Assembly (NCBI GenBank): GCA_016182555.1
Contig: JACPGJ010000008.1
Span: 28,272 to 92,271 of the forward strand
DNA from: Candidatus Kerfeldbacteria bacterium
Lineage (GTDB): Bacteria > Patescibacteriota > Patescibacteriia > UBA9570 > XYC2-FULL-38-9
Length of the DNA stretch: 64,000 bases
Reading direction: 5' to 3'
Of the stretch, positions 20,558 to 49,134 are shown piece by piece. Both the position numbers and the translations under genes were made by a program. Within the stretch, counting starts at the first letter, position 1. Each line of letters starts with the position of its first letter. The notes under the pieces are model-generated. The model was not told the DNA's origin. It did not search any database and worked only from the letters and a program-made list of their open reading frames with translations.

Positions 20558-20611
20558 CCGCTTAACTTTGGCATTGACCGCGACGTTCAAAAACGATAGA
20601 ATTTTGTTTAT

Positions 20612-21778: not shown

Positions 21779-21839
21779 CGGTGCCACGCGAATCTCATCA
21801 CTTGATTCCTTCTCTATTAAACGCTAGAGTATACCCTAT

Positions 21840-25265: not shown

Positions 25266-25269
25266 TGAT

Positions 25270-26055
25270 ATGAAATTATCATTTGTTATTTTGGGATACA
25301 AAGACTTGCATTATGTTCGTTTGTGTATCAAAAATATTTTGAAATTGAATCTATCCGTGAAATACGAAATTATTTATGTCGATAATGCTGGGCATGTTGG
25401 TATTCCGGAAATGGTGCGTTTGCTTTACCCTAAAGTTCGCATTGTTCAAAATGAAAAAAATCTTGGCCATCCAGCCGGCAATAACGCTGGTTTACGTGTG
25501 GCGCAGGGCGAATATATTCTCATGATTAACCCCGATATTGTGCTTCGTTCTGCCGAAGATATTCAACGCGTTTTGACCTATATGGATGAACACAAAGATA
25601 TCGCCATTCTTGGTCCACGTTTGAATAACACAGATGGCACCGTACAAAATTCCTGTTACCGAAAATATTCTAAACTCACACCGATTTTCCGCCGAACATT
25701 TTTAGGAAAATTACCATGGGGTAAAAAAGATATTGCTCGGCATTTGATGCTTGATTTCGATCATGATAAAACTCAAAACGTGGAATGGATACTGGGTGCC
25801 TGTCTCTTTTTACGAAAATCAATCATTGACCAAATTGGTTTGATGAATCCAAAATTCTTTATGTATTTTGGTGATTATGAATGGTGTGATCGCGCATGGG
25901 CAAGTGGATACCGTGTTGTGTACTTCCATGATGTGCATGGTATATTCCATTATCATAAACGTGAATCGGCATCAAGCCGTTTTTCTATTCCACAATTATT
26001 TTCGTATGCAACCCGTGTGCATTTAAAAGATTGGCTAACCTATTTACATATTTAA
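25270..26055 (+). CDS. glycosyltransferase family 2
   Basis: ATG at 25270, just after the upstream stop. LSFVILGYKD ... IIYVDNAGH ... MINPDIVL ... DYEWCDRA. Confidence 0.7.
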   Translation: MKLSFVILGYKDLHYVRLCIKNILKLNLSVKYEIIYVDNAGHVGIPEMVRLLYPKVRIVQNEKNLGHPAGNNAGLRVAQGEYILMINPDIVLRSAEDIQRVLTYMDEHKDIAILGPRLNNTDGTVQNSCYRKYSKLTPIFRRTFLGKLPWGKKDIARHLMLDFDHDKTQNVEWILGACLFLRKSIIDQIGLMNPKFFMYFGDYEWCDRAWASGYRVVYFHDVHGIFHYHKRESASSRFSIPQLFSYATRVHLKDWLTYLHI

Positions 26056-26058
26056 TCT

Positions 26059-28074
26059 ATGCATAACTTCGCACACCCATCCCATAGCACAAAAACAGCC
26101 AAAAAAGGCGGGAGTATACGAGAACGTTGGCGACGTCTTTCGCGTTTCAAAAAAACGATTATCACAACGATACTCGTACTCACCATCATTATTATTTTGC
26201 TGGGGGTGTGGGCACTGGTGAATATACGAGTAATGAAACGTGCGTATGCTGAAGGGTTAGCGGCAAAGCACAGTTTTGAATATGCACAGGTAGAGGTGGG
26301 AAATCAAAATTTTCCGCAAGCAATAAAAAATTTACAAGAAGCGAGCACACATTTTGATAATGCATATAGCCAATTGCGTCGGTTTGCGATTTATAAATAT
26401 ATTCCGGGTGTGCGCCCACAAATTCAAGCCGTGGAAAATATTTTGCTTGCCGGAAAAAGTTTGTCACAAGGTTTAGAGTCACTGGCCAATGTTGGCGCAG
26501 CAATAACCAGTGTCACGAATGTAAAAGATGCATCGTTTGCCGAAATTTCTGCAGAACAAAAGCGTGAATTGTTGAAAACATTAAACGAATCTACAGCCGA
26601 TTTACAAGGGGTAAAAGCCGAAATTGAGTTAGCCACAGTATTGATTGAAGAAATTCCCGACCATGGATTATTGAAACCAATTCGCTCTGCAGTAGAACCA
26701 GTGAAGCAGCAATTACCATTGCTCGAAACGTTGATTCATCAAGCTATTCCAACGGCAGAATCTTTACCATCCATTCTTGGGTACCCGAATGAAAAAACAT
26801 ATCTATTCCTTTTACAGAACAATCGTGAAATGCGACCAACGGGTGGGTTTATTGGTACGTATGGTATTCTCAAAATGGATGCCGGAGAGATTGCCGCATT
26901 TTCAACGGATAACGTATATAATTTAGATAATGCGTCTGAAGGCCGTGTCACAGAACCGTCACCGGGACCGATTGCGCAACATACGAGTACTCAAAATTGG
27001 CTCTTCCGCAATATTAACTGGTCACCAGATTTTCCAACGACGGCACGAAAGGCTGAAGATAAATATTATGAAGAAGGCGGAGCAGAGCAGAATATTGACG
27101 GAGTTATTGCCGTAACACCAACGTTTATCGAATCATTATTGGAATTAACCGGACCAATCACTGTTGATGGCATCGAATTCACCAGCGATAATTTTTTTGA
27201 AACATTAGAATATCAAGTGGAGCTGAATTATGACAACAATGGGTTAACCGAAGCACAACGCAAAGAGGTGATTGGCCACCTTTCAGAAGCATTATTGGAT
27301 AAATTATTAGGTTTGCCACGTTCACAATTTGCTACTATTTGGGAAACGTTTGTGAAAGATGTGAATTCTAAACAAATTCTTATCTATCTCGATGATTCCA
27401 CAACGCAAAATTTAGTTACAGAACAAAATTGGGCAGGAGAGATGAAATCTGCTGGAGAAGGGTCAGATTTTGTTATGGTTGTTGATGCAAATTTAGCGGC
27501 ACTGAAAACAGATGAAAAAATGGAACGTTCATTATCTTATGCAGTCACAAAAGAGGGAGATGACTATGTCGGAACACTTGATATGCATTATCAAAATAAT
27601 ACCGAGCATATTAACGAATTTTATACACGTTACCGCACCTATACTCGTATCTACCTTCCTGCTGGAACAGAACTGCTTGAACAATCTGGATTCATGACCA
27701 ACGATAAACTCCATAACGGCAAGCCAACGGATCCAGATGTGTATGAGGAATCCTATACTCAAATAAATGGAGAGCAATCTAGCTACACGGTGGTTGGTGG
27801 ATTTATCTCTATTGAACCACAGGAAACTGGTACATTGCATCTGAAATATCGCCTTCCGTCGATCGTTGCAGAGAAAATTAAGCAGGGCGAATATACACTC
27901 TATGTCCAAAAAGAAGCAGGAACGATTGCCCATGGACTTACGGTTTCCGTGGATGTCGGGAAAAAAATAACGAATGTTACACCATTTGACTTTACAAAAG
28001 AAATAGGGGATACTAGACTGTCACTGAGTACAGATCTCTCTATAGACAGGAAATTCAGTGTAGAGCTCAAATAA
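26059..28074 (+). CDS. DUF4012-like surface protein (N-terminal TM anchor)
   Basis: 671-aa ORF with one TM helix near the N-terminus, a central NNREMRPTGGFIGTYG motif remembered from DUF4012 proteins, and a position inside a glycan locus. Confidence 0.5.
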   Translation: MHNFAHPSHSTKTAKKGGSIRERWRRLSRFKKTIITTILVLTIIIILLGVWALVNIRVMKRAYAEGLAAKHSFEYAQVEVGNQNFPQAIKNLQEASTHFDNAYSQLRRFAIYKYIPGVRPQIQAVENILLAGKSLSQGLESLANVGAAITSVTNVKDASFAEISAEQKRELLKTLNESTADLQGVKAEIELATVLIEEIPDHGLLKPIRSAVEPVKQQLPLLETLIHQAIPTAESLPSILGYPNEKTYLFLLQNNREMRPTGGFIGTYGILKMDAGEIAAFSTDNVYNLDNASEGRVTEPSPGPIAQHTSTQNWLFRNINWSPDFPTTARKAEDKYYEEGGAEQNIDGVIAVTPTFIESLLELTGPITVDGIEFTSDNFFETLEYQVELNYDNNGLTEAQRKEVIGHLSEALLDKLLGLPRSQFATIWETFVKDVNSKQILIYLDDSTTQNLVTEQNWAGEMKSAGEGSDFVMVVDANLAALKTDEKMERSLSYAVTKEGDDYVGTLDMHYQNNTEHINEFYTRYRTYTRIYLPAGTELLEQSGFMTNDKLHNGKPTDPDVYEESYTQINGEQSSYTVVGGFISIEPQETGTLHLKYRLPSIVAEKIKQGEYTLYVQKEAGTIAHGLTVSVDVGKKITNVTPFDFTKEIGDTRLSLSTDLSIDRKFSVELK

Positions 28075-28098: not shown

Positions 28099-29106
28099 AT
28101 GTTTTTTCGGAAAATAGGCATCGATTTAGGCACAGCAAATACGCTCGTTTACGTTCCAAAACGAGGGATTGTTATTAATGAGCCATCGGTTGTTGCTATT
28201 TCAGTAAAAGACCGAAAAGTATTGGCTGTAGGCAATGAAGCTAAAGAAATGCTCGGGCGAACACCAGACACTATTGTGGCTCAAAAACCTTTGAAAGATG
28301 GAGTTATCGCTGATTATAAAACGACTGAAAGCATGTTGCGCTACTTTATCAATAAAGCGCTGGGCGGCGTACGTATTTTTGCCCCAGAAGTGATGATTGC
28401 GGTACCCGCAGGCATTACCTCAACCGAACGCCGCGCAGTAATTGATGCAACAATTCAAGCTGGTGCAAAGGCCGCCTACATTATTAAGCAACCAATTGCT
28501 TCAGCGATTGGCGCCGGTATTCCTATCGGTTCAGCTTCTGGGCACATGGTCATTGAAATTGGTGGGGGAACGTCAGAAATTGCGGTTATTTCTCTGGGCG
28601 GCATTGTCGCCAATACCTCTGTTCGTATTGGCGGAACGAAATTTGATGCGGCTATCCGTGAACTCATGCGTAAAAAACATAATCTAGCCATTGGAGAACG
28701 AACAGCAGAAGAATTAAAAATTCGCATCGGTTCTGCACTACCGCTCAAAGATCCGATGAGCATGGATGTTCGCGGTCGAGATGTGATTACTGGCTTGCCA
28801 CGTACAACAACGGTGACTTCTGATGATATTACAGAAGCGATTCAAACCGAATTACATGAATTAATTGAGGCGGTGAAATCGGTGCTCCAAGAAACACCTC
28901 CAGAACTGGCGGCAGATGTGATTGATAAAGGGATGGTGCTATCCGGTGGCAGCGGCATGTTGCGTAATTTAGACGAACTCCTGAGCCGTGCAACAGACGT
29001 GCCAGCCTATGTTGCCGATGATTCGTTATTGAACGTTGTCAAAGGAACAGGCATTGCGTTAGAAAATTTGGAATCCTACAAACGTTCAATAATGGAGAAT
29101 AAATGA
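28099..29106 (+). CDS. mreB: rod shape-determining protein MreB (paralog 1)
   Basis: IGIDLGTANTLVY ... actin-fold phosphate and adenosine motifs (VIEIGGGTSEIAV, GGSGMLRNLDELL). Confidence 0.85.
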   Translation: MFFRKIGIDLGTANTLVYVPKRGIVINEPSVVAISVKDRKVLAVGNEAKEMLGRTPDTIVAQKPLKDGVIADYKTTESMLRYFINKALGGVRIFAPEVMIAVPAGITSTERRAVIDATIQAGAKAAYIIKQPIASAIGAGIPIGSASGHMVIEIGGGTSEIAVISLGGIVANTSVRIGGTKFDAAIRELMRKKHNLAIGERTAEELKIRIGSALPLKDPMSMDVRGRDVITGLPRTTTVTSDDITEAIQTELHELIEAVKSVLQETPPELAADVIDKGMVLSGGSGMLRNLDELLSRATDVPAYVADDSLLNVVKGTGIALENLESYKRSIMENK

Positions 29107-33943: not shown

Positions 33944-34027
33944 GTGCTTTTTTTAGGTGAATACAATAATTGTTCATTGTTTGACAGGTGATTGCTATAT
34001 CGATATACTATATCAGCTATATTTTTT

Positions 34028-35074
34028 ATGTTGAAACGTTTTTTTGGATCACTTTCAAAGGATTTAGGAATCGATATCGGCACATCGAATACTCTTGTAT
34101 ATGCAAAAGATAAAGGGATCGTCATTCAAGAACCATCGGTAGTAGCCATTAACACTCGTAATGATCAAATCATCGCTGTTGGCCATGCCGCAAAAGAGAT
34201 GATTGGGAAAACCCCAGCGCATATTGTTGCATCTCGTCCGTTATTGGATGGTGTCGTTTCTGATTTTGAAGTAGCAGAGAAAATGTTGAAATATTTTATT
34301 GATAAAGTGCATCGTGAAACTTTTTCTGTTATGCCTCGGCCTCGGGTCGTTATTACCATGCCATTAGATATTACGGAAGTGGAGCGCAAAGCCGTTGAAG
34401 ATGCGGTAAAAAATGCTGGTGCACGTGAAGTATTTTTGATTGAACAACCGATGGCTGCAGCGATCGGTTCACGCGTACCGATTCAAGATGCTACGGGGCA
34501 TATGATTGTGGATATTGGTGCAGGGACAACCGGCATTGCAGTTATCTCTCTTGGTGGTATTGTGGCATGGAAATCATTACGCTTAGGTGGCGATGAATTG
34601 AATAAAAATATTATTAATTACATTCGTGATCATTGTAATGTATTGCTTGGCGATAAAACGGCTGAACAAGCAAAAATCAGTATCGGTTCTGCGTATAGCG
34701 ATGATGAAGTGCTGGAAGCCAAGGTGCGTGGACGAGATTTACTATCTGGATTGCCTCGTGAAATTGTAATCAATAGTAATCATATTCGAGAAGCAATGGG
34801 CAGGTCATTGAACACCATTGTGGATAACATTAAAACAGTTATTGAATCCACACCTCCGGAGTTAGTGGCCGATATCTATGAACGCGGTATTTTACTTTCT
34901 GGTGGAACAGCATTGCTGCGTGGGCTCGATAAAAAAATTGCTCATGAAGTACGTATTCCTGTACAAGTGGTCGAAGATCCTTTAACGGCGGTTGTCCGTG
35001 GCACTGGTATTGTGCTCGAAGATATTGATGCTTCGAAAGATCTATTTGTGACCACGCAACCTGATCTTATTTAA
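34028..35074 (+). CDS. mreB: rod shape-determining protein MreB (paralog 2), first gene of the mreBCD-mrdA cluster
   Basis: ATG at 34028 in ORF 33992..35074. LGIDIGTSNTLVY ... MIVDIGAGTTGIAV ... LSGGTALLRGLD. Confidence 0.85.
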   Translation: MLKRFFGSLSKDLGIDIGTSNTLVYAKDKGIVIQEPSVVAINTRNDQIIAVGHAAKEMIGKTPAHIVASRPLLDGVVSDFEVAEKMLKYFIDKVHRETFSVMPRPRVVITMPLDITEVERKAVEDAVKNAGAREVFLIEQPMAAAIGSRVPIQDATGHMIVDIGAGTTGIAVISLGGIVAWKSLRLGGDELNKNIINYIRDHCNVLLGDKTAEQAKISIGSAYSDDEVLEAKVRGRDLLSGLPREIVINSNHIREAMGRSLNTIVDNIKTVIESTPPELVADIYERGILLSGGTALLRGLDKKIAHEVRIPVQVVEDPLTAVVRGTGIVLEDIDASKDLFVTTQPDLI

Positions 35075-35087: not shown

Positions 35088-35906
35088 ATGACCTCTGTCT
35101 GGAAGAATAGACGAGCGACTGCTCCATGGGTAATCCCGGCGCTGATTAGTGTTGTGCTCATATTGCATTATTCGCATATCACACGGCCGCTGGATAATAT
35201 TATTACCTGGATCATACAGCCATTAGAAACGCGCACCTATCTTCTTTCCCAACGTTTTTTTGGCAACCAAGATCGTACGGAACAAAACCTCTCTTACAAT
35301 CAATTGCTCGCTCAACATACGGAAGATCAAGATACTATTCAAAACTTAATTATTGAAAATGCGCATTTACAGACATTAGTAGATGAAGTTCATTTATTAG
35401 AAGAGCAAAATACATTTTTACAAGAACGATCGTTTCAAGTAGTCACTGCACGAGTGACCAGTCGCTCAACCGATCAATTATCCCAAACAATGGTTATTAA
35501 TCGTGGTTCCAAACAGGGGATACAAACCGGATTACCGGTAATTGTGCAGAACGGTTTATTAGTGGGCATGATTCGTGAAGTGCAAGATTATTCAGCAGAA
35601 GTGTTATTATTGACCAGTTTTGATGCTCGTGTTAGCGGATTAGTCCAAAATGACAGTCAGAGTCCTGGTATTGTGACAGGAGCGCATAATCTCACTTTGG
35701 AAATGGATTTTATTCCACAATTTGATTCAGTAACCAGTGGGCAGTCCGTATTTACCAGTGGTACAGATCCCTTTATCCCTGGTGGTTTAGTCATTGGTCA
35801 AATTGCTGAAGTGAAGAGCGATGCTGGTTCTCTGTTTCAACATGCCTCTCTAGAATCCTTGTTTCAACCCGCTGAAATATCTATTGTTTCTATTATTTTA
35901 CCGTAA
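35088..35906 (+). CDS. mreC: rod shape-determining protein MreC
   Basis: N-terminal TM, a coiled-coil segment, a C-terminal beta-rich domain (GLPVIVQNGLLVGMIREV ... GIVTGA), and position after mreB. Confidence 0.7.
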   Translation: MTSVWKNRRATAPWVIPALISVVLILHYSHITRPLDNIITWIIQPLETRTYLLSQRFFGNQDRTEQNLSYNQLLAQHTEDQDTIQNLIIENAHLQTLVDEVHLLEEQNTFLQERSFQVVTARVTSRSTDQLSQTMVINRGSKQGIQTGLPVIVQNGLLVGMIREVQDYSAEVLLLTSFDARVSGLVQNDSQSPGIVTGAHNLTLEMDFIPQFDSVTSGQSVFTSGTDPFIPGGLVIGQIAEVKSDAGSLFQHASLESLFQPAEISIVSIILP

Positions 35907-35913
35907 GCGCATT

Positions 35914-36444
35914 ATGATGAAGCGTATGCTGACCATGAGTATTTGGATACTGACACTCCTCATCACGGCAGTGCTTTCTATTGCATTCTTTGGTTCATCA
36001 AATTTTTTCGCGCGCGCGATCAATATTCCATTAGTCCTTGGTTTTTCTTTCATTATTTTCCGATATCCCTATCGTGGATATGTTGTGCTTGCTGTTTTAT
36101 TCTATATTGTAGATCTGCATTCCGCGTTGCCATTTGGCATGATGTTGAGCGCCGGGTTATTGGCTGGATGGGGGATTGTATTCGTGCAACAAAACATTTT
36201 AAAAAATTTCGCATTGTACTCTGTAGTGCTGTATACGCTTATCGGAACAGCACTGTATTATCTTCTGCTCATGGTTATGATTCTGTGCGCACAACAACTA
36301 CACATATTGCAATCTGGCACAGTGGATTGGCATACATTTATCGTCACTGCCGCTACACAAATGGTGGTGCACAGCGTACTATTGGTGACCGTGTTCCTTT
36401 TTGTAAAATTTTTCCATCATCGGTTACTGCATCATTCTTCTTAA
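35914..36444 (+). CDS. mreD: rod shape-determining protein MreD-like membrane protein
   Basis: ATG at 35914 after the mreC stop. About 177 aa with 5-6 TM helices and synteny between mreC and mrdA. Confidence 0.5.
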   Translation: MMKRMLTMSIWILTLLITAVLSIAFFGSSNFFARAINIPLVLGFSFIIFRYPYRGYVVLAVLFYIVDLHSALPFGMMLSAGLLAGWGIVFVQQNILKNFALYSVVLYTLIGTALYYLLLMVMILCAQQLHILQSGTVDWHTFIVTAATQMVVHSVLLVTVFLFVKFFHHRLLHHSS

Positions 36445-36454: not shown

Positions 36455-38332
36455 ATGAGCATGAAATCAAACGATCCATTCTTTATTGATACAGGCGATC
36501 AGCAACAAATGACGTTCAATCGGCCAGCAACACAATTTCGTATTCGTTTTCTCTTATGGATCATTGCCTTGTGCATCAGCATTATTATTGCCCGTGTATT
36601 TTTCCTACAAATTGTCTTTGGAAGCGATTATCGCCGTACCGCTGAAGGAAATCGGATTCAAACACACGTCGTAAAAGCACTCCGCGGAGTTATCTATGAT
36701 GCGAAAGGAGAATTATTGGTAAAGAATATTCCAAATTTTAGTTTAACCATCAATGCACAGCAGGCGCTCAATATTAAAAAAGAAGCACGTGAACAACTAG
36801 CGAACACCCTCGCTCATATTGCGCAATTATCACCAGCCGATATTGTAAATGCATTTGATCAAGCCAAGCGAAGTGGACAAAACGTAGTGCTCAAAGACCA
36901 CATTCCGTACACAGATGCGCTCCAAGATATGATTGCTATTCAACAACTGCCCGCTATTTCCGTTGAACCCTTTTACAGTCGGCAATATTTAGGCGGAGAA
37001 CCATACGCGCATTTGTTGGGATATACAGCAAAAATTTCTGAAACTGAATATGCCAATTTGAAAGATAACGGATATTTATTAACGGACGAAATTGGAAAAA
37101 GTGGAGTAGAAAAATCGTATGAACAAGCATTGCGCGGGAAAGATGGTGAGCAAGATATTGAAGTGGATTTTCGTGGAGCACAGCAATCCGTCGTCGCTGA
37201 TGTGGCGCCACAATCTGGTGATGCGGTTTACTTAAGCATTGAGCCAACACTACAGCGGTTGCTCTATGAGAAAATTAAAACCGCTGTTGATGAACAGCAT
37301 TTGCCTGGTGGTTCTGCGGTTGCCATTGATCCTCGAGATGGTCGAGTCCTCGCACTAGTCTCTTATCCTTCTTACGATAACAATACTTTTGCTCAAGGTA
37401 TTTCGCAAGACGCATACGACGCATTACAGAATGATGAACGCCACCCATTGTTTCACCGAAGCATTGCCGGCCAATATCCTTCGGGTTCTACATTTAAACC
37501 GATAGTCGCCGCGGCAGGCCTAGAAGAAGGAGTGGTAACGCCACAAACTACAATAGTCAGTACTGGAGGTTTACAAATAGATATTTATCGCTTTCCTGAT
37601 TGGAAACCGGGTGGACACGGAGTAACCGATTTGAATAAAGCCATGGCTGAATCCGTCAATACCTATTTTTACCTGCTCGGTGGCGGCGATAATAAAACCA
37701 GCACAGGTCTGGGTGTGGAACGTATTACCGCCTATGCACGGCGTTTTGGTTTAGGTGAGCAGGTCGGCATTGATGTTCCAGGTGAAGCCAGCGGATTCTT
37801 GCCAACGAAACAATGGAAAGAAGAATTTAAAAACGAGCAATGGTACATTGGGGATACCTATCATTATGCTATTGGCCAAGGAGATTTATTAGTCACTCCA
37901 CTACAAGTCGCTACGTATACGGCAATCATCGCGAATGGAGGCACGTTTTACCAACCACACGTGGTAGAAAAATTAGTTTCTGAAGCTGATGGAAGTACGC
38001 GAATCATTGATCCCATTATCAGCGACCCACAAGTCGTGAGTAAACCAACTATTGAAGCTGTACGACTTGCCATGCGTGAAGATGTTCTTTCTCCAACAGG
38101 GAGTGGTCGGACACTGCAATCCTTACCCGTATCAAGTGCAGGAAAAACAGGTACTGCACAAACCTACGGCGATGAACCGACCCATTCTTGGTTTACCGTT
38201 TTTGCTCCTTATGAAACCCCAGAGATAGCGTTAACGGTTTTAGTTGAAAAAGCAGGCCATGGATATGGTGCAGCCGTACCAATTGCTCGTGAAGTGTTGC
38301 AAGAATACTTCGTAAATCGTATACCGCAGTGA
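36455..38332 (+). CDS. mrdA: penicillin-binding protein 2 (class B transpeptidase)
   Basis: N-terminal TM, a dimerisation domain, and transpeptidase motifs STFKP, SVN and KTGTA. Confidence 0.85.
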   Translation: MSMKSNDPFFIDTGDQQQMTFNRPATQFRIRFLLWIIALCISIIIARVFFLQIVFGSDYRRTAEGNRIQTHVVKALRGVIYDAKGELLVKNIPNFSLTINAQQALNIKKEAREQLANTLAHIAQLSPADIVNAFDQAKRSGQNVVLKDHIPYTDALQDMIAIQQLPAISVEPFYSRQYLGGEPYAHLLGYTAKISETEYANLKDNGYLLTDEIGKSGVEKSYEQALRGKDGEQDIEVDFRGAQQSVVADVAPQSGDAVYLSIEPTLQRLLYEKIKTAVDEQHLPGGSAVAIDPRDGRVLALVSYPSYDNNTFAQGISQDAYDALQNDERHPLFHRSIAGQYPSGSTFKPIVAAAGLEEGVVTPQTTIVSTGGLQIDIYRFPDWKPGGHGVTDLNKAMAESVNTYFYLLGGGDNKTSTGLGVERITAYARRFGLGEQVGIDVPGEASGFLPTKQWKEEFKNEQWYIGDTYHYAIGQGDLLVTPLQVATYTAIIANGGTFYQPHVVEKLVSEADGSTRIIDPIISDPQVVSKPTIEAVRLAMREDVLSPTGSGRTLQSLPVSSAGKTGTAQTYGDEPTHSWFTVFAPYETPEIALTVLVEKAGHGYGAAVPIAREVLQEYFVNRIPQ

Positions 38333-38986: not shown

Positions 38987-41083
38987 ATGTCACAAAATCA
39001 CGCTTCACCAATTGACGAATATCAACAACGTATAGCGAAGATGCAAGAACTGCGCGACCTTCAGATTGATCCTTACCCGGCTCAATCTGATCGAACGAGT
39101 ACGGTTGCGCAATTTTTGGAAACATTTGAACTCTTAGCAGCAGAACAGCGTACACAAACATTGACTGGCCGAATTCGATTAAAACGGGAACATGGTAAAT
39201 TAACCTTTGCTCACCTCCAAGACGCAAGTGGAAAAATTCAATTGGTGTTTTCTCAAGCTGAGCTTGGTGAAGATGCCTATGCACAGATGAATCGATTTTT
39301 TGATGTGGCTGATATTATTCAAATTACCGGAACACCTTTCCTGACCAAAAAAGGGGAACAATCAATCTTGGTCACGCAACCACCGCTGATGTTGGCAAAA
39401 GCCTTGCGCCCGTTACCAGAGAAGTGGAAAGGGATTCAAGATGAAGAAACACGTTTCCGCAAACGATACCTGGATATGGTCATGAACCCAGAATTGCGCG
39501 AAATGTTCGTGAAGAAAAGCCTTTTTTGGAATGCCATGCGTACATTTCTTATTGATGAAGGGTTTTTAGAAATTGAAACACCGATATTAGAATCGACACC
39601 TGGTGGCGCTGATGCTGAGCCATTTATTACACATCATAACGCACTGGGTATTGATTTATTTTTGCGCATTTCCGTTGGCGAGTTGTGGCAAAAACGGTTA
39701 ATGGTGGCGGGGTTTGAAAAAACATTCGAAATTGGTCGTGTATTTCGCAATGAGGGTATGAGTCCTGAACATTTACAAGATTATACAGCCATGGAGTTTT
39801 ATTGGGCATATGCGGATTATAACGATAGCATGAAGCTCGTGGAGCGTATGTACAAACATTGTATTATGGCGACATTTGGCACATTGCAATTTTCTATTCG
39901 TGGATTTCATATCAATTTTGATACAGAATGGGGCCACATCGATTATGCACAAACAATTCAGGAGCAATTAGATATTGATATTCTTGCTGCCAGTGATGAT
40001 GAAATTGCTGCGAAAGCAAGAACCATTGGTATGACGGTGGAAGAACATGCTAACCGTGCCCGGTTAGTAGATTCATTATGGAAATATTGTCGTAAATCGA
40101 TTGCTGGGCCGGTTTTTTTGGTGAATCATCCAGTAGATGTGTCACCACTCGCCAAACGAAAAGGCAGCGATGCACGTTTGGTGGAGCGATATCAAATTAT
40201 TATTGCTGGGAGCGAACAAGGAAATGGCTATTCCGAATTAAATGACCCCATGGACCAACGAGCACGTTTTGAAGAGCAAGCAAAACTGCGTGAAGCGGGC
40301 GATACTGAAGCACAAATGCATGATGAAGATTTCGTTGAAGCACTGGAGCATGGGATGCCGCCAACTACCGGCTTTGGTGTGAGTGAACGATTATTTTCCT
40401 TCTTAATGGATAAACCCATTCGTGAATGTGTAATGTTTCCGCTCTTGCGGCCAAAACAACCCGCAATGGTTGATTCGCCTGATACCATAACGTCCGCTAC
40501 GGAATCATCAGATTATTCATTGCAATCATTTGAAGCCGGTATATCAAGAGAACATGCACGAATGTGGCTTTTTCAAGAAGTGAAAGATGAAAATTTACGA
40601 CGTCACATGTTGGCTACGGAAGCGCTGATGAAAGCTCTTGCGCGTCATTTTGGAGCAGCTTCTCCAGAGAGTTGGGGAATAGCCGGGCTCTTGCATGATA
40701 TTGATTGGGAAAAAACATCTATGGATCAACATGGTCTTGTGGGCGCGGAAATGGCAAAAGAAAAAAATATTCATCCACTTATTGTTGACGCCATTCGTGA
40801 ACATAATTATCACCACAAGCTTGAACCAAAAACGCTGTTGTCAAAAGCGATGATGTGTTTAGAGCAGTTGACTGGTCTGATTTCTGCAGCCACATTTGTT
40901 CAGCCAGATAAAAATGTTCATTCAGTCAAGTTAAGTAGCGTGAAGAAAAAATTTAAAGATAAAGGCTTTGCCAAAGGGGTCGACCGAACAATGATTGCAA
41001 AATGTGAAGAACTCCTTGGCCTTTCACTTGATCAATCCATTGAAATCTGTTTAAAAGCCATGCAAGATTCGCCACAAGAATGA
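38987..41083 (+). CDS. lysS: lysine--tRNA ligase (class II) fused to a C-terminal HD-domain (YqeK/HDIG-like)
   Basis: 698 aa. Residues 1 to about 495 are a complete LysRS (OB fold, motifs 1-3, FRNEG, GGADA, PPTTGFGVSERL). Residues about 520-690 carry an HD-domain signature (RRHMLATEALMKALARHFG ... GLLHDIDWEK ... EHNYHH). Confidence 0.8.
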   Translation: MSQNHASPIDEYQQRIAKMQELRDLQIDPYPAQSDRTSTVAQFLETFELLAAEQRTQTLTGRIRLKREHGKLTFAHLQDASGKIQLVFSQAELGEDAYAQMNRFFDVADIIQITGTPFLTKKGEQSILVTQPPLMLAKALRPLPEKWKGIQDEETRFRKRYLDMVMNPELREMFVKKSLFWNAMRTFLIDEGFLEIETPILESTPGGADAEPFITHHNALGIDLFLRISVGELWQKRLMVAGFEKTFEIGRVFRNEGMSPEHLQDYTAMEFYWAYADYNDSMKLVERMYKHCIMATFGTLQFSIRGFHINFDTEWGHIDYAQTIQEQLDIDILAASDDEIAAKARTIGMTVEEHANRARLVDSLWKYCRKSIAGPVFLVNHPVDVSPLAKRKGSDARLVERYQIIIAGSEQGNGYSELNDPMDQRARFEEQAKLREAGDTEAQMHDEDFVEALEHGMPPTTGFGVSERLFSFLMDKPIRECVMFPLLRPKQPAMVDSPDTITSATESSDYSLQSFEAGISREHARMWLFQEVKDENLRRHMLATEALMKALARHFGAASPESWGIAGLLHDIDWEKTSMDQHGLVGAEMAKEKNIHPLIVDAIREHNYHHKLEPKTLLSKAMMCLEQLTGLISAATFVQPDKNVHSVKLSSVKKKFKDKGFAKGVDRTMIAKCEELLGLSLDQSIEICLKAMQDSPQE

Positions 41084-41108: not shown

Positions 41109-42380
41109 ATGCTAGACATTCAATACATTCGACAATACCCTGAACTTGTTCAACAAAACGCCGATAAACGTGGTGTGAAAGTGAATATGCAATTGCTTCT
41201 TCACCGTGATGAAGCATTGCGCAATCGAACCCAAGAGCTGGATACGTTACGCGCTGATCGCAATAGCATTGCTGCGCAAATGCAACAAACGGGAGGCAAA
41301 AATGTTGAGCTGATTGAACAAGGGAAATTAGTAAAAGTAAAAATTGCTGAAATTGAACAAGAAGTAGAACGGCTACGTGAAGAATTCCAAGCGCTCATGA
41401 TGCAGGTGCCCAATATGACGCATCCAGATTCACCGATTGGAAAAAATGATCTTGAAAATGTCGAAATTCGGCGGTTTCAAGAGCCCACTGAGTTTTCTTT
41501 TCCTCCAAAAGATCACGTGGAGCTCGGGAAGTCATTGGATCTTATCGATTTTGAACGTGGTGCCGATGTGGCAGGAAAGGGGTTTTACTATTTGAAAAAT
41601 GAAGCGGTATTACTCGAATTGGCACTGGTGAATTACGCTATGGATACCTGTATGGCTGAAGGATTTATGCCGATGATGACGCCAGACCTCGCGTATTCGC
41701 ACGTACTCGCGGGAACAGGCTTTGCTCCGCGGGGCCCGGAAACACAAATTTATAATCTTGAAAATACCAATTTATCTCTTATTGCGACCGCAGAAATTGG
41801 AGTTGCTGGCTATTATCAGAATCATCTTTTTGCAGCAGGTGAACTAGACCAACCGCTCAAAATTGTCGCTTTATCTCATTGTTTTCGCACAGAAGCAGGT
41901 TCGTATGGTCGAGAATCACGTGGTTTGTATCGCGTGCACCAATTTACGAAAGTGGAAATGTTTATCTATAGCAAGCCAGAAGATTCAGAAGCTATGCATC
42001 AGCATCTTTTGGAAGTAGAGGAAAAAATTATGCAACACTTAGAAATACCATATCGTGTCGTCGATATTTGTACCGGAGATTTAGGTGGAGCAGCTTATCG
42101 CAAATATGATGTAGAAGCCTGGATGCCATTTAAGCAAGATTGGGGAGAGGTCACTTCGACATCAAATTGTACGGATTATCAAGCTCGTCGATTGAATATT
42201 AAATATGTAAATGCGGAAGGAAAGAAAGAATATGTGCATACACTCAATGGCACCGCTATTGCGTTGTCTCGAACACCCATTGCTGTTTTAGAAAATTTTC
42301 AACAAGCGGATGGTTCGATTAAAATACCTCAAGTATTGCACCCATATATGTTTGGGAAAACCATGATCAATCGCCGTTAA
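41109..42380 (+). CDS. serS: serine--tRNA ligase
   Basis: 423 aa with an N-terminal coiled-coil arm and a class II core (FRTEAGSYGRESRGLYRVHQF). Confidence 0.9.
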   Translation: MLDIQYIRQYPELVQQNADKRGVKVNMQLLLHRDEALRNRTQELDTLRADRNSIAAQMQQTGGKNVELIEQGKLVKVKIAEIEQEVERLREEFQALMMQVPNMTHPDSPIGKNDLENVEIRRFQEPTEFSFPPKDHVELGKSLDLIDFERGADVAGKGFYYLKNEAVLLELALVNYAMDTCMAEGFMPMMTPDLAYSHVLAGTGFAPRGPETQIYNLENTNLSLIATAEIGVAGYYQNHLFAAGELDQPLKIVALSHCFRTEAGSYGRESRGLYRVHQFTKVEMFIYSKPEDSEAMHQHLLEVEEKIMQHLEIPYRVVDICTGDLGGAAYRKYDVEAWMPFKQDWGEVTSTSNCTDYQARRLNIKYVNAEGKKEYVHTLNGTAIALSRTPIAVLENFQQADGSIKIPQVLHPYMFGKTMINRR

Positions 42381-43105
42381 CGACGTGCTTCCCAAGGAGT
42401 TTCATTTGAGCGTTTGAACACGCATTGAGAAAGCCAGTTAGTAAACCACGACCAGAGTAAACAGCCCCACCCATCGCGATGGATGCGCCTTCCGGACATC
42501 CGCATCGGATATTTCATCCAGACGCGAGTTTTTCCTAAACGAGTAAGACGGTGAAAAATATCCCAATCTTCTGAGGTGTAGAGTGCTGGGTTATAGCCAT
42601 TGATCTCTTCAAAAGAAGCGCGACGAATAATTTGACAATCTCCACCAGCACCACCAAGCCCGATCATGTTGACGAAGTACATATTCGCATTCACCACGCC
42701 AAACCAAAAACGGTCAATAACCCGCTCTTCTTCTGGATAGAGCCGTGAAGGGAGAGCCACAGCAATTAATTTTTTTTGCTGAGCAAATTGTTGCTTTACC
42801 AAAGAGAGTACCGCATTCAGGTGCGGAATCAATACGTCAGCATCAGTAAAGAAAAGAACATCCCCAGTAGCGACGCGAGCGCCACGGTTGCGACACTCGC
42901 CAATACTGGAACGCTCTGATTCTGTAATAGAGAGCACTGTATCTGCCAACGGCGCAGCTATTTTCGTGGTCATATCACTACTACCATTATCAGAAATAAT
43001 AATTTCACAATCTGTGCCACGAAACGGTTGCCACTGTTCGAGAGTTTTCCTTATACGTTTTTCTTCATTATATGTGGGAATGATGACAGATATTTTCATA
43101 CGCAT
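42377..43105 (-). CDS. glycosyltransferase family 2 (last gene of the minus-strand operon)
   Basis: Start chosen at the ATG encoding MRMKISVIIPTYNEE (43105), 10 nt after the upstream stop. DNGSSD ... FTDADV (DxD). Confidence 0.7.
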   Translation of the reverse strand: MRMKISVIIPTYNEEKRIRKTLEQWQPFRGTDCEIIISDNGSSDMTTKIAAPLADTVLSITESERSSIGECRNRGARVATGDVLFFTDADVLIPHLNAVLSLVKQQFAQQKKLIAVALPSRLYPEEERVIDRFWFGVVNANMYFVNMIGLGGAGGDCQIIRRASFEEINGYNPALYTSEDWDIFHRLTRLGKTRVWMKYPMRMSGRRIHRDGWGCLLWSWFTNWLSQCVFKRSNETPWEARR

Positions 43106-43115: not shown

Positions 43116-44165
43116 TTACCAAAAACCTCTTTTAATACGGCGCGCAGTTTCAATAATGCGAGTAAGATAATATTTCGACCGAATAGGATAATCCTGACAA
43201 GGAAGTAAATCAATACGCTCTCCACCAAAACCGGTTTTGAATGTCGTCACGCCGGCAAACGGATGTGGCCGTCGGGTGATACGCGAACGCATTTTATTCT
43301 CTGGTACAATACCCCAAAAATTATAGGCAAGACACCCACGTCGCTTTGCTTCACGTATTGCTTCCCATTGTAATAGATACGACGCTGGAATTTTTTGAAA
43401 TTCACTTAATGAGGCCCCATGATGATACGAAGCCATATCGCCGTAAAACATGATCATGGCTGCGGCAATCACTTTCCCTTCATATTCTGCTAAAAACATG
43501 GCGACTTGATCAGCTTTGACAAATGCACGAAATTGAGCACGAAAAAAATCGTCTTTATAGGGAACAAAACCGTGCCGTTCAACAGTGCTTTTGTGAATGC
43601 GAATGAAATGTTCAACATCGTCTGGATTTTTACTCATCCGAATCGTAACGCCATCACGAGTAGCACGACGAATAAGATTACGCATCGTTTTTCGCATCCC
43701 AACAAGTAGCGTATCTTCTGCTGGTGTAATATCCAACCACCATACATGTTCAGCAAGCATGTGCAATGGAGCACGCCGCCAACCTGCACGATAATACAAC
43801 GCACGATTATCTTTTGCGTCAACAATAAAGGGAGACGAGCGGATGAAGTCGATATTCAGCTCTTTTGCTTTTTTCACGACATACTGTGTAAGCTCGGGTA
43901 CATACTGCCATTTATGCATCTGAAATACTGGACCATAGGGAAGATAAAAAAAATGTCCACGCTTTGCGCGCACAATGACCACAAAAGCCACGCCAATGAG
44001 TATGTTATCTTCTTTCACTCCAATGAGGAGTGATGATTCGCCAACCGTTTCGTGGACCTCGCGCATATACCACGATTGTAAAAATGGCGGCCGAGGAAAA
44101 CCCAATAAAAAATTTTCCCATTCTTCCTGGTTGATCTTTTCAGTGATGACAAGATTAGCGTTCAT
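43116..44165 (-). CDS. FemAB-family aminoacyl/peptidyl transferase (FemX-like)
   Basis: 349 aa with an N-terminal LPYGPV, two GNAT-like halves, and a C-terminal FKTGFGG typical of FemABX. It overlaps the upstream gene by 11 nt. Confidence 0.6.
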   Translation of the reverse strand: MNANLVITEKINQEEWENFLLGFPRPPFLQSWYMREVHETVGESSLLIGVKEDNILIGVAFVVIVRAKRGHFFYLPYGPVFQMHKWQYVPELTQYVVKKAKELNIDFIRSSPFIVDAKDNRALYYRAGWRRAPLHMLAEHVWWLDITPAEDTLLVGMRKTMRNLIRRATRDGVTIRMSKNPDDVEHFIRIHKSTVERHGFVPYKDDFFRAQFRAFVKADQVAMFLAEYEGKVIAAAMIMFYGDMASYHHGASLSEFQKIPASYLLQWEAIREAKRRGCLAYNFWGIVPENKMRSRITRRPHPFAGVTTFKTGFGGERIDLLPCQDYPIRSKYYLTRIIETARRIKRGFW

Positions 44166-45420
44166 GGAGGATCTGAATGATATGTTGGCTTATATTCTCC
44201 GCTTGCTGTTTGCTCGTTTGAATGGAGGTGGGTAAATTCACTACACGCCGAGCTGTTTCTTCTGCGTTGGGGCAACTTCCGTTTGTATACTGTGCTGCGG
44301 TCAGCGAGGCATCTTTTGGATCAATAACGTGCCGATACCAGTCTCCGAGGAGTATGCCTTCTTTTCGCATTTTTTTCAAGAGTATTTCCGCTTGTGCAGG
44401 TGAAACTTGTATTGGAAAGCGTAAAAATATGGGTTCGTCGCTTTCTCGTATAGTGGGAAGTTGAATTTCTTTCTGTTTTGCAAATGCGGCCTGGTACATG
44501 TCGGCGAGTTTTTTCCGGTGCGTATTTTTTATCTCTAAATCACTATATTGTTGCAAAGCCCATTCCGCAATAACATTGGGTAAACGAAAACCATGCAATT
44601 GTTGTCCCTGTTTTTCTTCTGTTTCTAATACTAATGGCCACAAATGCAATGAGCGTGTTCCTTCGATCAATAATTTTCCGAGTGAAAAAAAATAGTAAAA
44701 CTGTTTTGCCACGGCAAAAATTAATGGGTGGAGTAATCGCTTTTTTACCCATAATCGAGAGGGGAGAGATAACCCATCAACATAAGCGCGAACGCCTTGA
44801 GCTATATCTGTATTATGAGTGATCGCCAACCCACCAGAAACAGAAGAGATGACCTTATCGCGGCCAAAAGAAAACATTGCGGCATCACCAAATGTGCCAA
44901 CGAGTTTTCCATTCACGGCAGCGCCCAAGGCATGGGCACAATCTTCAATCAAGAGAACACCATGTAAACGGCAGAGTGCCTGTATGCGCTCAATATCTGC
45001 TGGAATACCAAAGGTGTGTTGCACAATCACTGCACGAATATGTTGTTCATGACGGAGGATGGTTTCTAGGGAATCGACATCAATATTATACGAATCATCA
45101 ATATCTACATATCGTGGTTTGCCGCCAGCCGCAATAATGGTATTCGGTACAGAGATACAGGTAAAGGATTGTAATATCACCTTATCGTCGGGACGCAATT
45201 TGAGAGCGTCCATAAGCGCATATAATGCGGTACGACCAGCATCAAAAGCAATGGCGTGCGGCATGCCATAATCTTCTTTAAAACGTTTTTCCAACGCAAA
45301 TACGGCTGTTCCGCGCATCCATCGAAGCCAATGCCACGGATAAAAAATGCGACTCAACACAAATTGAATATCACGCTTAGTCACATTCGGAGAGATGTTT
45401 GATGAAATAGGTGTGCGCAT
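44155..45420 (-). CDS. DegT/DnrJ/EryC1/StrS-family PLP-dependent sugar aminotransferase
   Basis: AIAFDAGRTALYAL ... DCAHALGA ... SFGRDKVISSVSGG (the PLP lysine region). The start is uncertain among 45498, 45471 and 45420; 45420 avoids overlap with the MurF-like gene. Confidence 0.75.
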   Translation of the reverse strand: MRTPISSNISPNVTKRDIQFVLSRIFYPWHWLRWMRGTAVFALEKRFKEDYGMPHAIAFDAGRTALYALMDALKLRPDDKVILQSFTCISVPNTIIAAGGKPRYVDIDDSYNIDVDSLETILRHEQHIRAVIVQHTFGIPADIERIQALCRLHGVLLIEDCAHALGAAVNGKLVGTFGDAAMFSFGRDKVISSVSGGLAITHNTDIAQGVRAYVDGLSLPSRLWVKKRLLHPLIFAVAKQFYYFFSLGKLLIEGTRSLHLWPLVLETEEKQGQQLHGFRLPNVIAEWALQQYSDLEIKNTHRKKLADMYQAAFAKQKEIQLPTIRESDEPIFLRFPIQVSPAQAEILLKKMRKEGILLGDWYRHVIDPKDASLTAAQYTNGSCPNAEETARRVVNLPTSIQTSKQQAENISQHIIQILHER

Positions 45421-45436: not shown

Positions 45437-47026
45437 TTATCTCGTAGCCATATACTCTCGTAGCAACCCATGAATTCTTCCTTCAATGAGTACCGCATCC
45501 CTATCTGTTATTGTAGAGAGGTGGTGTTTTATCATGCGAGATGGGCGATCGTCAATAATGATCTGTTCTCGAGCCATCCCTCCTGCAAGCGCTCCACGCA
45601 ATAAGGTTTGGGCAAAATCTTTTTTGGTAATATAGAGTGTATCCGCGACAGCACCAATCGCACGACCAATTTCTTCATGTTTTGCATCAGACTGCTGTCC
45701 CAATTCTTGCATGCCAGGAGTCAGCACTATTTTTTTCTTACCCGTATAGACTTGTAAATAGCGAAGGGCCGCTATAAATCCATCTGGGTTAGCATTATAT
45801 CCATCGTCAATGACCGTCGCGTGATTTTTACCAAGCGATACATCCATTGTTCCTGGTATCGTTTGTAATGTATTCATGCCATGAACAATCTGTTGCATGG
45901 TGAGACCAAGATGATCAGCAACGGTAACAGCAGCGAGGATAGCAGGAATGACCTGCGCACCAAACAATCGAACGGTGACCGGCGTAGAAACGTTTCCAAT
46001 ATGCAGAACAAATTGTATATGCCGTGGAAATACATGAATATCAGTGGCATAAACGTGCGCAATATCTTGTACCGAAAAAAATTTTTTCTTCGCATGAGTG
46101 CGATCAGCAACCGCCAAGCAATGGGGATTGTCACGGTTAATCACTGCAAGGCCCGAGCTTGGTAGTGCTTCCAATAATTCAGCTTTCGTATTTTTTGTTG
46201 TTTCAATATCACGAAAAAATGCAAGATGCTGTTCGTTAATAGCGGTGAGTATACCAATAATCGGCGAAACTAATTCGCAAGTTGAACGAATGTCGCCAGG
46301 AATATACGCTCCCATTTCGGCAATAAACACCTCGTGTTGTGGTTTCAGTTGGTGAAGTATGGTTTGTGCCACACCGATATCAACATTCACATTTTTTGAG
46401 GTGGCGAGAACAGAGAATTTTTCTGAGAGAATCGTTTTTAAAAATTCTTTTGTTGAAGATTTTCCATAACTACCAGTAATGCCAATGACAATAGGATTGA
46501 CGTGTCGTATTTTTTCTTTAGCGCGTCGAATCACTCGCTGTTTTTCCCGGTGCGTCATCGGTTCAAAACTGATAATAAACGCACTCACGAGAATTGGAAC
46601 GAGCATCACCGCAACCACCAATACGAAAAACATCGTATTATTGGTATAAAAAATAAACCCAGGGATACTATTCAAAACACATAGTATACTCATCATCAGT
46701 AGTATTTTTGCGGTAAATTTTGGTCGCCAACGTTTTCGCAACCAATCAACAATTTCTCCAATAGCGAGAAGAGAGAAATACAAAACGGCATGTGAAGGAA
46801 AAATGAATGCGATAATGAGTATAAGAAACTCTACAAAAAATATCCAAGAGAAAATCGTTCGCTTGCCTGAACGTGTGTGCAAAAAATCACGCATGCGATC
46901 ACGTCGATACTCTTTTAATTGCCAAATGTAAAACCAAAAAAGCATTTTGGTACCAATAATCGCACACCACAAAATAAAAATCATCAGTATAAATAATTGA
47001 TGAGAATACGTATTGAATATATCCAT
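45437..47026 (-). CDS. MurF-like Mur-ligase with an N-terminal ~170-aa polytopic membrane domain
   Basis: 529 aa with about four N-terminal TM helices. The soluble part has Mur-ligase P-loop IGITGSYGKSSTKE and a MurF-type DDGYNANP motif. Confidence 0.75.
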   Translation of the reverse strand: MDIFNTYSHQLFILMIFILWCAIIGTKMLFWFYIWQLKEYRRDRMRDFLHTRSGKRTIFSWIFFVEFLILIIAFIFPSHAVLYFSLLAIGEIVDWLRKRWRPKFTAKILLMMSILCVLNSIPGFIFYTNNTMFFVLVVAVMLVPILVSAFIISFEPMTHREKQRVIRRAKEKIRHVNPIVIGITGSYGKSSTKEFLKTILSEKFSVLATSKNVNVDIGVAQTILHQLKPQHEVFIAEMGAYIPGDIRSTCELVSPIIGILTAINEQHLAFFRDIETTKNTKAELLEALPSSGLAVINRDNPHCLAVADRTHAKKKFFSVQDIAHVYATDIHVFPRHIQFVLHIGNVSTPVTVRLFGAQVIPAILAAVTVADHLGLTMQQIVHGMNTLQTIPGTMDVSLGKNHATVIDDGYNANPDGFIAALRYLQVYTGKKKIVLTPGMQELGQQSDAKHEEIGRAIGAVADTLYITKKDFAQTLLRGALAGGMAREQIIIDDRPSRMIKHHLSTITDRDAVLIEGRIHGLLREYMATR

Positions 47027-47820: not shown

Positions 47821-47943
47821 ATGTGTATTATAGCGAATATTCACCTATAGCACCAATTCTTCGAGAGCTTCGTTTGGCTTCGCAAAGCCGTGCTCTCTCC
47901 AGAATTGCTGCTCCGGCAAATATACAGTAAAATACTATATGAT

Positions 47944-49134
47944 ATGTTCAAATTCATCCTTCAACAAAGAAACAGGAAACGGATACGGGCGATGCAAAAC
48001 CAACGGCCTACCAATTTTCGAAGTACAAAAATTCCTTCGCCACAAAAAACAGCATCCAGTGAAATATGGCGCGTCATCTGTTCATGGATAAAAAAAGATG
48101 GTTGGGCAATCATTGGTATTATCGGGATGATGGGAGTAACGAGCTGGTACTTTGGGTTCCACCAACAACATTTTCATATTCATGATGTGCATATTGAAGG
48201 AAATAAATTTATTCATACAGAAGATATTCAACATGTTGTTGATCAATTTACTTCCAGCAAAACTATCATTTTTTTGAAACGAAACACGTTTTGGACATTC
48301 AAAGCTGAGGCTCTTGAAAAACAATTGTATCAATCTTTGAGTAGCACCTATGCATTAGAACAGGTAGAAGTGCAAAAAAAATTTCCAAATAGTGTAGCGA
48401 TAACGGTTACCGAACGGATACCCAGTGTCACCTGGGTCACCACGTCTTCTGGAACAGAGCATTGGTATACGGTAGACCGAGAGGGCATTGTTACGCAAGT
48501 GTTGGGTTCGCCAGACCAGGCGGATACATCATTTCCGATTATCCGTGATACTAATCGTGATCAATTTGAAGCTGGTTGGCATATCATTTCTTCTCAATAT
48601 ATTGATTTTGTTTTACATCTGCATGAACAAATGGAAAACACAACTGGGACACATGTGGATTCTTATGTATTGCCGCTGATGCAATGCCAAGAACAACAAT
48701 ATGTGACCGAGGAAATTTTTAAACAAGAATTACAGAATTCTGCTTCTGATGAATTTCGTGACAAGAAACGTGAAATTCAAGAAAAATTTCAACGCGGAGA
48801 ATTAACAGTTGATGAAAGTTTAGAAGAATTAGAAAAAATTAAAGAAGAAGAGTTTCAACAAAATCATGAAGGAGAAGATACTAAAGGGGTGCAAGGGCAT
48901 GTTGAATGGCAAACGGTGTATGTTCCTGTAACGTGTGATTTTGTGAACGTCGCTACTGAAGTACATGTCATGACTAGCGGAGACCATGCTGGTTACCAAG
49001 TATATATGGATACCAGCCTCGATCTTTCTACCCAATTGCAAAATCTAGAATCCGTTTTACAAGAAAAAATTAGCGATCCAACAGCTATTCAATACATTGA
49101 TGTGCGTTTTGCTGATCGTGTCTATTATCAATAA
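47944..49134 (+). CDS. ftsQ: FtsQ/DivIB-like cell-division protein with an acidic insertion
   Basis: TM helix WAIIGIIGMMGVTSWYFGF, a POTRA-like IHDVHIEGNKFIHTEDI, and KFPNSVAITVTERIPSVTW. The ORF track begins with GTG at 47890; ATG 47944 is used here (start uncertain). Confidence 0.5.
   Translation: MFKFILQQRNRKRIRAMQNQRPTNFRSTKIPSPQKTASSEIWRVICSWIKKDGWAIIGIIGMMGVTSWYFGFHQQHFHIHDVHIEGNKFIHTEDIQHVVDQFTSSKTIIFLKRNTFWTFKAEALEKQLYQSLSSTYALEQVEVQKKFPNSVAITVTERIPSVTWVTTSSGTEHWYTVDREGIVTQVLGSPDQADTSFPIIRDTNRDQFEAGWHIISSQYIDFVLHLHEQMENTTGTHVDSYVLPLMQCQEQQYVTEEIFKQELQNSASDEFRDKKREIQEKFQRGELTVDESLEELEKIKEEEFQQNHEGEDTKGVQGHVEWQTVYVPVTCDFVNVATEVHVMTSGDHAGYQVYMDTSLDLSTQLQNLESVLQEKISDPTAIQYIDVRFADRVYYQ

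Follow-up and report, generated by a model that had tools for sequence, protein, structure and literature searches.

A predicted membrane-integrated MurF family with a five-helix domain in place of domain 1, examined at a Kerfeldbacteria locus

MurF is an essential enzyme and a long-studied antibiotic target that textbooks describe as soluble and cytoplasmic. A 64,000-nucleotide stretch from a Candidatus Kerfeldbacteria bacterium (contig JACPGJ010000008.1, positions 28,272 to 92,271), here called the window, contains an open reading frame (ORF) at 45437..47026 that does not fit this description. Its product is hydrophobic from residue 1 to about residue 155 and is a MurF-type ligase after that. 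The explanation that best covers the findings as a whole, and that is probably correct, is a housekeeping MurF that is integrated in the membrane, has a five-helix domain in the place of MurF domain 1 and has an EstV-like hydrolase as its partner. This protein and its relatives with the same architecture are referred to as TM-MurF, for transmembrane (TM) MurF.

The architecture of the ORF is not the product of a sequencing error. In an earlier note on this DNA, made from the letters alone, the fusion of a separate upstream membrane gene to a murF by a sequencing or assembly error was named as the alternative to a true membrane-bound ligase. Such a fusion would join a membrane gene to a truncated murF. 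The junction between the membrane and ligase regions contains no N bases, and both other reading frames are closed, being full of stops. The sole homopolymer near the junction, and the only point that could favor an error, is a run of six A at codon 171. Before and after this run, the reading frame agrees with the family consensus (A169, K172 and the P-loop), and in the structural model a continuous linker helix spans the region. The same architecture occurs in more than 100 independent assemblies and in 80 named genomes, cultured isolates among them. With these independent homologs and the closed frames, a frameshift or assembly fusion is rejected and retains almost no probability.

The ligase part of the protein is MurF-type, as the earlier note proposed. 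The motifs quoted in that note are found in the ORF translation, GITGSYGKSSTKE at residues 182-194 and DDGYNANP at residues 407-414. The Pfam matches are Mur_ligase_M (residues 183-370) and Mur_ligase_C (residues 399-516). The best NCBIfam family is TIGR01143, murF, with 243.4 bits; the MurE, MurD and MurC families give 62-88 bits. The best PDB sequence matches (phmmer) are all MurF. The AlphaFold2 (AF2) model of the full-length protein, made with 109 homologs, has a predicted local distance difference test (pLDDT) value of 95.8 and a predicted template modelling (pTM) value of 0.92. The ten best matches in a Foldseek comparison with the PDB are likewise all MurF (for 4qf5, E = 9.7e-27 and a root-mean-square deviation of 2.6 A over 375 columns).

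The residues expected at the active site are conserved across the family. K189, N214, E237, H267, E283 and E441 are 100% conserved, D407, Y410, N413 and P414 are nearly invariant, and the ELG...H motif is also conserved. By alignment, K281 corresponds to the carbamoyl-Lys K202 of Escherichia coli MurF. This position is Lys in approximately 85% of the family and Glu in the rest. In family alignment A1 and in the 78 locus members, Glu is present at position 281 in approximately 13-17% of members, where it would mimic the carbamate. The catalytic residue set of TM-MurF is intact.

Contrary to the earlier note, the MurF core is not complete, and the missing part is domain 1. In the Pfam scan, residues 1-180 have no match of any kind, and PF01225 is not found in the protein. 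The TIGR01143 match begins at model position 64 of 418. In the alignment to MurF structures, which defines the domain boundary, residue 176 is paired with residue 98 of E. coli MurF. The Foldseek and sequence matches cover the ligase part only, which indicates that the membrane region replaces MurF domain 1 and is not an anchor added to a full MurF. The linker helix that follows the membrane region corresponds to the end of MurF domain 1 plus its linker. Domain 1 itself is judged to be absent from TM-MurF on the basis of these sequence and model comparisons. In MurF, this domain binds the uridine of the substrate and touches the pyrophosphate (PMC6085368).

The region that stands in its place is a genuine, conserved, polytopic membrane domain. 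The helical N-terminal anchor of the earlier note is retained in this form, with five helices where that note had counted four. A Kyte-Doolittle scan with a 19-residue window identifies five strong hydrophobic segments before residue 155. The AF2 model contains five helices, at residues 2-37, 61-75, 77-98, 106-128 and 133-153 (with a kink at P144), and continues as a confidently modelled, unbroken linker at residues 155-176. Among the 109 homologs, the mean number of Lys and Arg residues is 0.05 in the N-terminal tail, 5.7 in loop 1, 0.06 in loop 2, 4.7 in loop 3, 0.55 in loop 4 and 6.7 in the linker. This alternation argues for five passes through the membrane that leave the N-terminus outside and place the ligase in the cytoplasm. 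The two basic loops are near-constant in length in the same sequences (standard deviations 0.2 and 0.7), and the remaining loops vary. The most conserved positions of the membrane domain lie in the two cytoplasmic loops, with P156 and A169 in addition.

These cytoplasmic positions are shared between distant hosts. Members from the candidate phyla radiation (CPR) and from other bacteria are compared in an alignment of 78 family sequences, all taken from named genomes. In both groups, conservation is 95-100% for Q36 and Y40 and 100% for T105, and P102 is conserved as well. Position 107 is K in 91% of CPR members and R in 97% of non-CPR members. The presence of Q36, Y40, P102, T105 and K/R107 in both groups indicates that the domains are homologous across phyla. 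A generic membrane anchor is rejected because the invariant cytoplasmic-face residues are common to phyla and the loops are of fixed length.

More than 100 homologs of 520-550 amino acids (aa) share the N-terminal extension, with more than 90% of the protein covered. When a profile of the membrane domain alone is searched, it matches 1,344 cluster representatives at E <= 1e-3 and 864 at E <= 1e-10, where each representative stands for a cluster at 50% identity. In all of the best 150 of the 1,344 matches, the domain is at the extreme N-terminus, and most of these proteins are 480-585 aa long. The domain is not seen alone or in other architectures among these 150. The shorter proteins among them, whose alignments all begin at approximately residue 1, resemble truncated ORFs. 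The AF2 model of the isolated domain has a pLDDT of 93.1, and a structure search with it against the PDB gives no significant match (best E = 1.4).

In a scan of species-representative genomes, 80 loci have the architecture of TM helices (3-6) joined to a MurF-like ligase. The hosts belong to many CPR lineages, the Poribacteria, Chloroflexota, Clostridia, Tissierellia, Bacteroidales, Treponemataceae and Bacilli. Named hosts include the cultured Schnuerera ultunensis (Clostridia/Tissierellia group), Aquibacillus kalidii and Alistipes finegoldii (Bacteroidales). The members are named MurF by NCBI. The Bacteroidales loci are L046, L055, L058, L066, L069 and L071-L081. A plasmid search finds no full-length TM-MurF. 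Canonical MurF is present in Bacteroidota (PLSDB H36 and H49), in Riemerella as a bifunctional MurF/alanine racemase.

The gene directly upstream of TM-MurF encodes an alpha/beta hydrolase and is a near-constant neighbor in the family. In the window, the hydrolase stop codon lies 2 nucleotides before the murF ATG, and the two genes are probably translationally coupled. Gene context is counted over 83 loci, 48 CPR-type and 35 non-CPR. An alpha/beta hydrolase is directly upstream on the same strand in 75 of these, and this is the case in every phylum. 'EstV family lipase' is the best or second-best NCBIfam match of the partner hydrolases, with 105-150 bits, which is under the cutoff. EstV is an enzyme of Helicobacter pylori. 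The triad S111/D223/H251 is present in 73 of 73 partner hydrolases, and the HGWGG oxyanion motif is conserved. Most of the 73 are without a hydrophobic segment. The invariant triad, the oxyanion motif and the general lack of a hydrophobic segment point to a partner that is an active, cytoplasmic serine hydrolase.

The position of TM-MurF among cell wall genes is congruent with a housekeeping role. In the Poribacteria (L065 and L050), the gene order is rsmH-ftsI-murE-hydrolase-TM-MurF-ddl-mraY-murD-ftsW-murG-murC-ftsQ. TM-MurF therefore occupies the canonical murF slot and is the only MurF-type gene of the cluster. In CPR loci of the division and cell wall (dcw) type (L034, L083, L045 and L005), the cassette lies among ftsI, murE, murC, mraY, murD, ftsW and murG, and TM-MurF is again the only MurF-type gene. 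In the window, TM-MurF adjoins the ftsQ region and is near mreB-mreC-pbp2; it is not beside murE or mraY. No second Mur ligase, D-Ala-D-Ala ligase (Ddl), MraY, MurD, FtsW or MurG is found in these 64 kb. The features of the locus are listed in Table 1.

Table 1. Features of the TM-MurF gene and of the genes around it, in window coordinates (PLP, pyridoxal phosphate)
Feature	Position	Strand	Evidence and remarks
TM-MurF, 529 aa, ATG start	45437..47026	-	stop codon included; single unbroken ORF
Five-helix membrane domain, residues 1-154	46565..47026	-	hydropathy, AF2, positive-inside statistics, profile
Cytoplasmic-face motif W35-Q-L-K-E-Y-R-x-D-R44, right after TM1	46895..46924	-	W35, Q36, Y40 and R44 invariant in alignment A2
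Cytoplasmic-face motif P102-x-x-T105-x-K107, right before TM4	46706..46723	-	P102 and T105 invariant
Linker helix, residues 155-176, TM5 to ligase	46499..46564	-	AF2; A169 invariant; TIGR01143 match starts here
Mur ligase central ATP-binding domain, residues 177-375	45902..46498	-	Pfam PF08245, 1.2e-31
P-loop G182-T192	46451-46483	-	within central domain
Mur ligase C-terminal domain, residues 376-529	45440..45901	-	Pfam PF02875, 1.7e-13; DDGYNANP at 407-414
EstV-like alpha/beta serine hydrolase, 271 aa	47029..47844	-	Pfam Abhydrolase_1; NCBIfam 'EstV family lipase', 105 bits
DegT/DnrJ/EryC1-type PLP aminotransferase	44155..45420	-	Pfam PF01041, 9e-60; probable ATG 45420, longest ORF to 45498
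FemX-like FemAB-family transferase, 349 aa	43116..44165	-	Pfam FemAB, 2.5e-35
GT2 glycosyltransferase, last gene of operon	42377..43105	-	Pfam Glycos_transf_2, 6.7e-22; longest ORF to 43228
FtsQ-type POTRA protein, divergent from operon	47890..49134	+	Pfam POTRA_1, 3.7e-9

The genes that follow TM-MurF differ between CPR-type and non-CPR loci. DegT is present after TM-MurF in 38 of the 83 loci and FemAB in 39, all of them CPR-type. FtsQ comes after FemAB in 23 CPR-type loci. In the non-CPR loci, Ddl comes after TM-MurF in 31 of 35. Two neighboring Ddl proteins score 343 and 340 bits, over the NCBIfam D-Ala-D-Ala ligase cutoff of 262. In the window, the closest PDB matches of the DegT protein are perosamine synthetase and other nucleoside diphosphate-sugar aminotransferases, and that of the FemAB protein is Weissella FemX (2e-11). 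The GT2 gene at the end of the operon has its probable start, inferred from the translation, at an ATG near 43105. This gene is not conserved in the cassette at other loci.

Three further observations concern individual cassettes. The window DegT protein matches Pfam and NCBIfam models in two stretches and, at 421-447 aa, is longer than typical members, which suggests an insertion after approximately residue 238. In one CPR genome, a DUF5652 ORF (68 aa; L002:11641-11847) is located between TM-MurF and DegT. In Aquibacillus kalidii (L059:9213-14820), the set consists of the hydrolase, TM-MurF, Ddl, a VanX-type M15 D-Ala-D-Ala dipeptidase and a 385-aa protein without a family. This set looks like a van-like accessory set, and the genome, one of the Bacillaceae, presumably also has a canonical ddl-murF pair.

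In the proposed mechanism, TM-MurF would work at the inner membrane face, where it would add D-Ala-D-Ala to the stem tripeptide of peptidoglycan in an ATP-dependent reaction. The five-helix domain would keep the two ligase domains, central and C-terminal, against the membrane on its cytoplasmic side. The conserved loops with their basic and aromatic residues (Q36, Y40 and R44; P102, T105 and K/R107) would recognize the uridine diphosphate (UDP)-pyrophosphate end of UDP-N-acetylmuramic acid (UDP-MurNAc)-tripeptide. If the loops take over this recognition, the pentapeptide product would be made beside the membrane enzyme MraY and handed on directly. TM-MurF would work together with the cytoplasmic EstV-like serine hydrolase that is encoded upstream.

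Several points weigh against this explanation. The TIGR01143 score of 243.4 bits is under the curated cutoff of 288.6, a shortfall that fits the absence of domain 1. Ddl, the supplier of the dipeptide, is within 10 kb in 0 of the 48 CPR-type loci. The Mur search covered the window of the 598-kb contig, and a second, canonical MurF could be encoded elsewhere in the genome. Bacteroidota contain a canonical MurF in addition to the hydrolase/TM-MurF/Ddl set, and the TM form therefore does not stand alone as MurF in every group. This implies two MurF systems in one phylum, possibly in one cell. The recognition of UDP by the cytoplasmic loops is pure inference. The activity of the TM-MurF family is a predicted one. 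The membership of the Campylobacterota, whose MurF is compared below, is based on architecture, synteny and the EstV link rather than on a direct alignment of the N-termini.

One rival explanation places the reaction after MraY, with D-Ala-D-Ala added to undecaprenyl-pyrophosphoryl-MurNAc-tripeptide (the tripeptide form of lipid I or lipid II). With the uridine-binding domain lost, the polyprenyl-pyrophosphate end would be bound by the membrane domain instead. The absence of domain 1 agrees with this explanation, as does the location of the invariant basic and polar residues, which are exactly at the boundary of membrane and cytoplasm, the place expected for a lipid pyrophosphate. A conserved polytopic domain is also more than a simple anchor needs. 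MurT provides a parallel: no other Mur-family enzyme is known to act on lipid II, and this substrate lacks the uridine that domain 1 binds (PMC6085368). The ligase domains of TM-MurF, however, are typical of MurF and far from MurT (NCBIfam MurT E of approximately 1e-4), and the Poribacteria order murE-(hydrolase)-murF-ddl-mraY is that of the canonical pathway. The adjacent FemAB protein of the CPR has as its closest match Weissella FemX, an enzyme that uses soluble UDP-MurNAc-pentapeptide. A lipid-linked substrate is rather unlikely, but it is the main rival. Of the two functional ideas in the earlier note, a membrane-bound substrate corresponds to this rival, and scaffolding to MraY corresponds to the step beside MraY in the proposed mechanism. 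A similarly small chance attaches to a wider departure from the textbook pathway, in which the membrane domain and the hydrolase form a complex for the last stem-peptide addition. This addition would occur either post-MraY on the lipid-linked tripeptide or in obligate coupling to MraY with a hydrolase-dependent step. In the CPR, where a DegT-type aminotransferase and a FemX-like, tRNA-dependent transferase occupy the place of Ddl, the stem terminus would perhaps not be made by the classical Ddl route.

The low score against TIGR01143 and the gene neighborhoods also bear on another rival, in which TM-MurF is a specialised paralog. It would be a second ligase that adds another dipeptide or amino acid in a precursor-modifying cassette, together with DegT and FemX in the CPR and with Ddl and VanX-like enzymes elsewhere. 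The CPR-type loci, with DegT and FemAB where a nearby Ddl might be expected, agree with such a role, as do the Bacteroidota with a canonical MurF plus the TM-type set. The Aquibacillus module beside its VanX-type M15 dipeptidase resembles a van-like accessory cluster. A second-ligase role is not congruent with the CPR and Poribacteria dcw clusters, where TM-MurF is the only MurF-type gene, or with the very small size of CPR genomes (the source contig is 598,550 bp). Moreover, the neighboring Ddl proteins pass D-Ala-D-Ala ligase cutoffs rather than matching VanA or VanG models, and an essential role is described for the TM-MurF of H. pylori (PMC9507126). A specialised paralog is improbable on balance, and a membrane-integrated housekeeping MurF is the preferred explanation.

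Other genes of the window were recorded in passing. Two MreB paralogs are encoded at 28099-29106 and 33992-35074 (+). Downstream of the second lie genes for MreC (35088-35906), possibly for MreD (35884-36444) and for a transpeptidase of the PBP2 type (36455-38332). A lysyl-tRNA synthetase ORF of 698 aa (38987-41083, +) has a C-terminal extension of approximately 190 aa with an HD-like 'LLHDID' motif, as read from the translation. A surface-polysaccharide cluster (17828-28074, +) contains a Wzx-like flippase and several GT4 and GT2 glycosyltransferases, along with a Wzy_C O-antigen-ligase-like protein (22717-24249) and a DUF4012 protein (26059-28074). A 918-aa ORF without a Pfam match (11034-13790, +) overlaps the end of a short alanyl-tRNA synthetase (610 aa, 9293-11125).

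MurF is described as a soluble cytoplasmic enzyme in recent work, for example in a 2023 survey of Mur gene arrangements, in which the TM form and the hydrolase are unmentioned (PMC10214165). No literature on TM-MurF in the CPR or in Mur surveys was found. The family-wide results appear to be undescribed: how widely the family is distributed, its lack of domain 1, the cytoplasmic motifs, the hydrolase partner and the CPR combination of DegT and FemX in the place of Ddl. A membrane-integrated MurF without the uridine-binding domain is a large family, with more than 1,300 clusters at 50% identity, and no Helicobacter oddity. It raises the questions of how the nucleotide or lipid end of the substrate is recognized without domain 1, whether precursor synthesis is coupled physically to MraY at the membrane and what the role of the adjacent hydrolase is. 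Inhibitors built on the domain 1 contacts of soluble MurF would not apply to TM-MurF enzymes, that of H. pylori included. This kind of MurF is known but barely described, and the leads of interest are its partner hydrolase and the missing domain 1.

Two other groups of Mur-ligase-family proteins are associated with the membrane. PgsB/CapB is membrane-anchored at the N-terminus; its anchor is short, without a conserved polytopic domain, and it is encoded in the pgsBCA operon. Membership of TM-MurF in this group is rejected, with 17 bits for TIGR04012 against a cutoff of 222.7 and with a hydrolase, DegT and FemAB as neighbors. MurT, of MurT/GatD, resembles TM-MurF in having no uridine-binding N-terminal domain, and its lipid-linked substrate is processed at the membrane (PMC6085368). 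Unlike TM-MurF, MurT is a soluble protein that amidates D-Glu in a pair with the glutaminase GatD. Membership in the MurT group is also rejected (NF052464, 21 bits, and NF045635, 18 bits, against cutoffs of 800), and there is no GatD-like neighbor.

The closest known systems are those of H. pylori and Campylobacter jejuni. One report, citing Blair 2018, gives H. pylori MurF four TM domains at its N-terminus and treats it as a protein of the inner membrane (PMC9448923). With this precedent and the occurrence of the architecture in many phyla, a membrane MurF is not new. In H. pylori, MurF is essential, and the membrane proteins Csd5 and Csd7 are co-purified with it (PMC9507126, PMC9448923). Its gene (HP0740) is 1485 bp in length (PMC6501431). 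The 494-aa product is longer than canonical MurF, a trait it shares with TM-MurF. In C. jejuni, Cj0795c (MurF) adjoins the alpha/beta-fold hydrolase Cj0796c, and the Ddl Cj0798c is just upstream; deletion of Cj0796c failed, and the gene is possibly essential (PMC5530802). The window TM-MurF resembles the membrane-anchored MurF of the H. pylori type in having several N-terminal TM helices and a neighboring alpha/beta hydrolase gene. The two differ in that five helices are predicted in the window TM-MurF and four are reported for H. pylori MurF. They also differ in context, since the CPR TM-MurF has no Ddl nearby and has DegT and a FemX-like protein instead, whereas C. jejuni murF occurs with ddl. 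The single member of the family already noted in the literature is very probably the MurF of H. pylori.

Canonical soluble MurF (E. coli 1GG4, Acinetobacter baumannii 4QF5 and Pseudomonas aeruginosa 4CVM) has the same central and C-terminal domains and the same catalytic residues as TM-MurF. Canonical MurF and the relatives of TM-MurF also share the same position in the dcw cluster. Where E. coli MurF has domain 1 (approximately residues 1-97), TM-MurF has a 155-residue five-helix membrane domain and a linker. Unlike canonical MurF, TM-MurF is a predicted integral membrane protein with a hydrolase as its neighbor.

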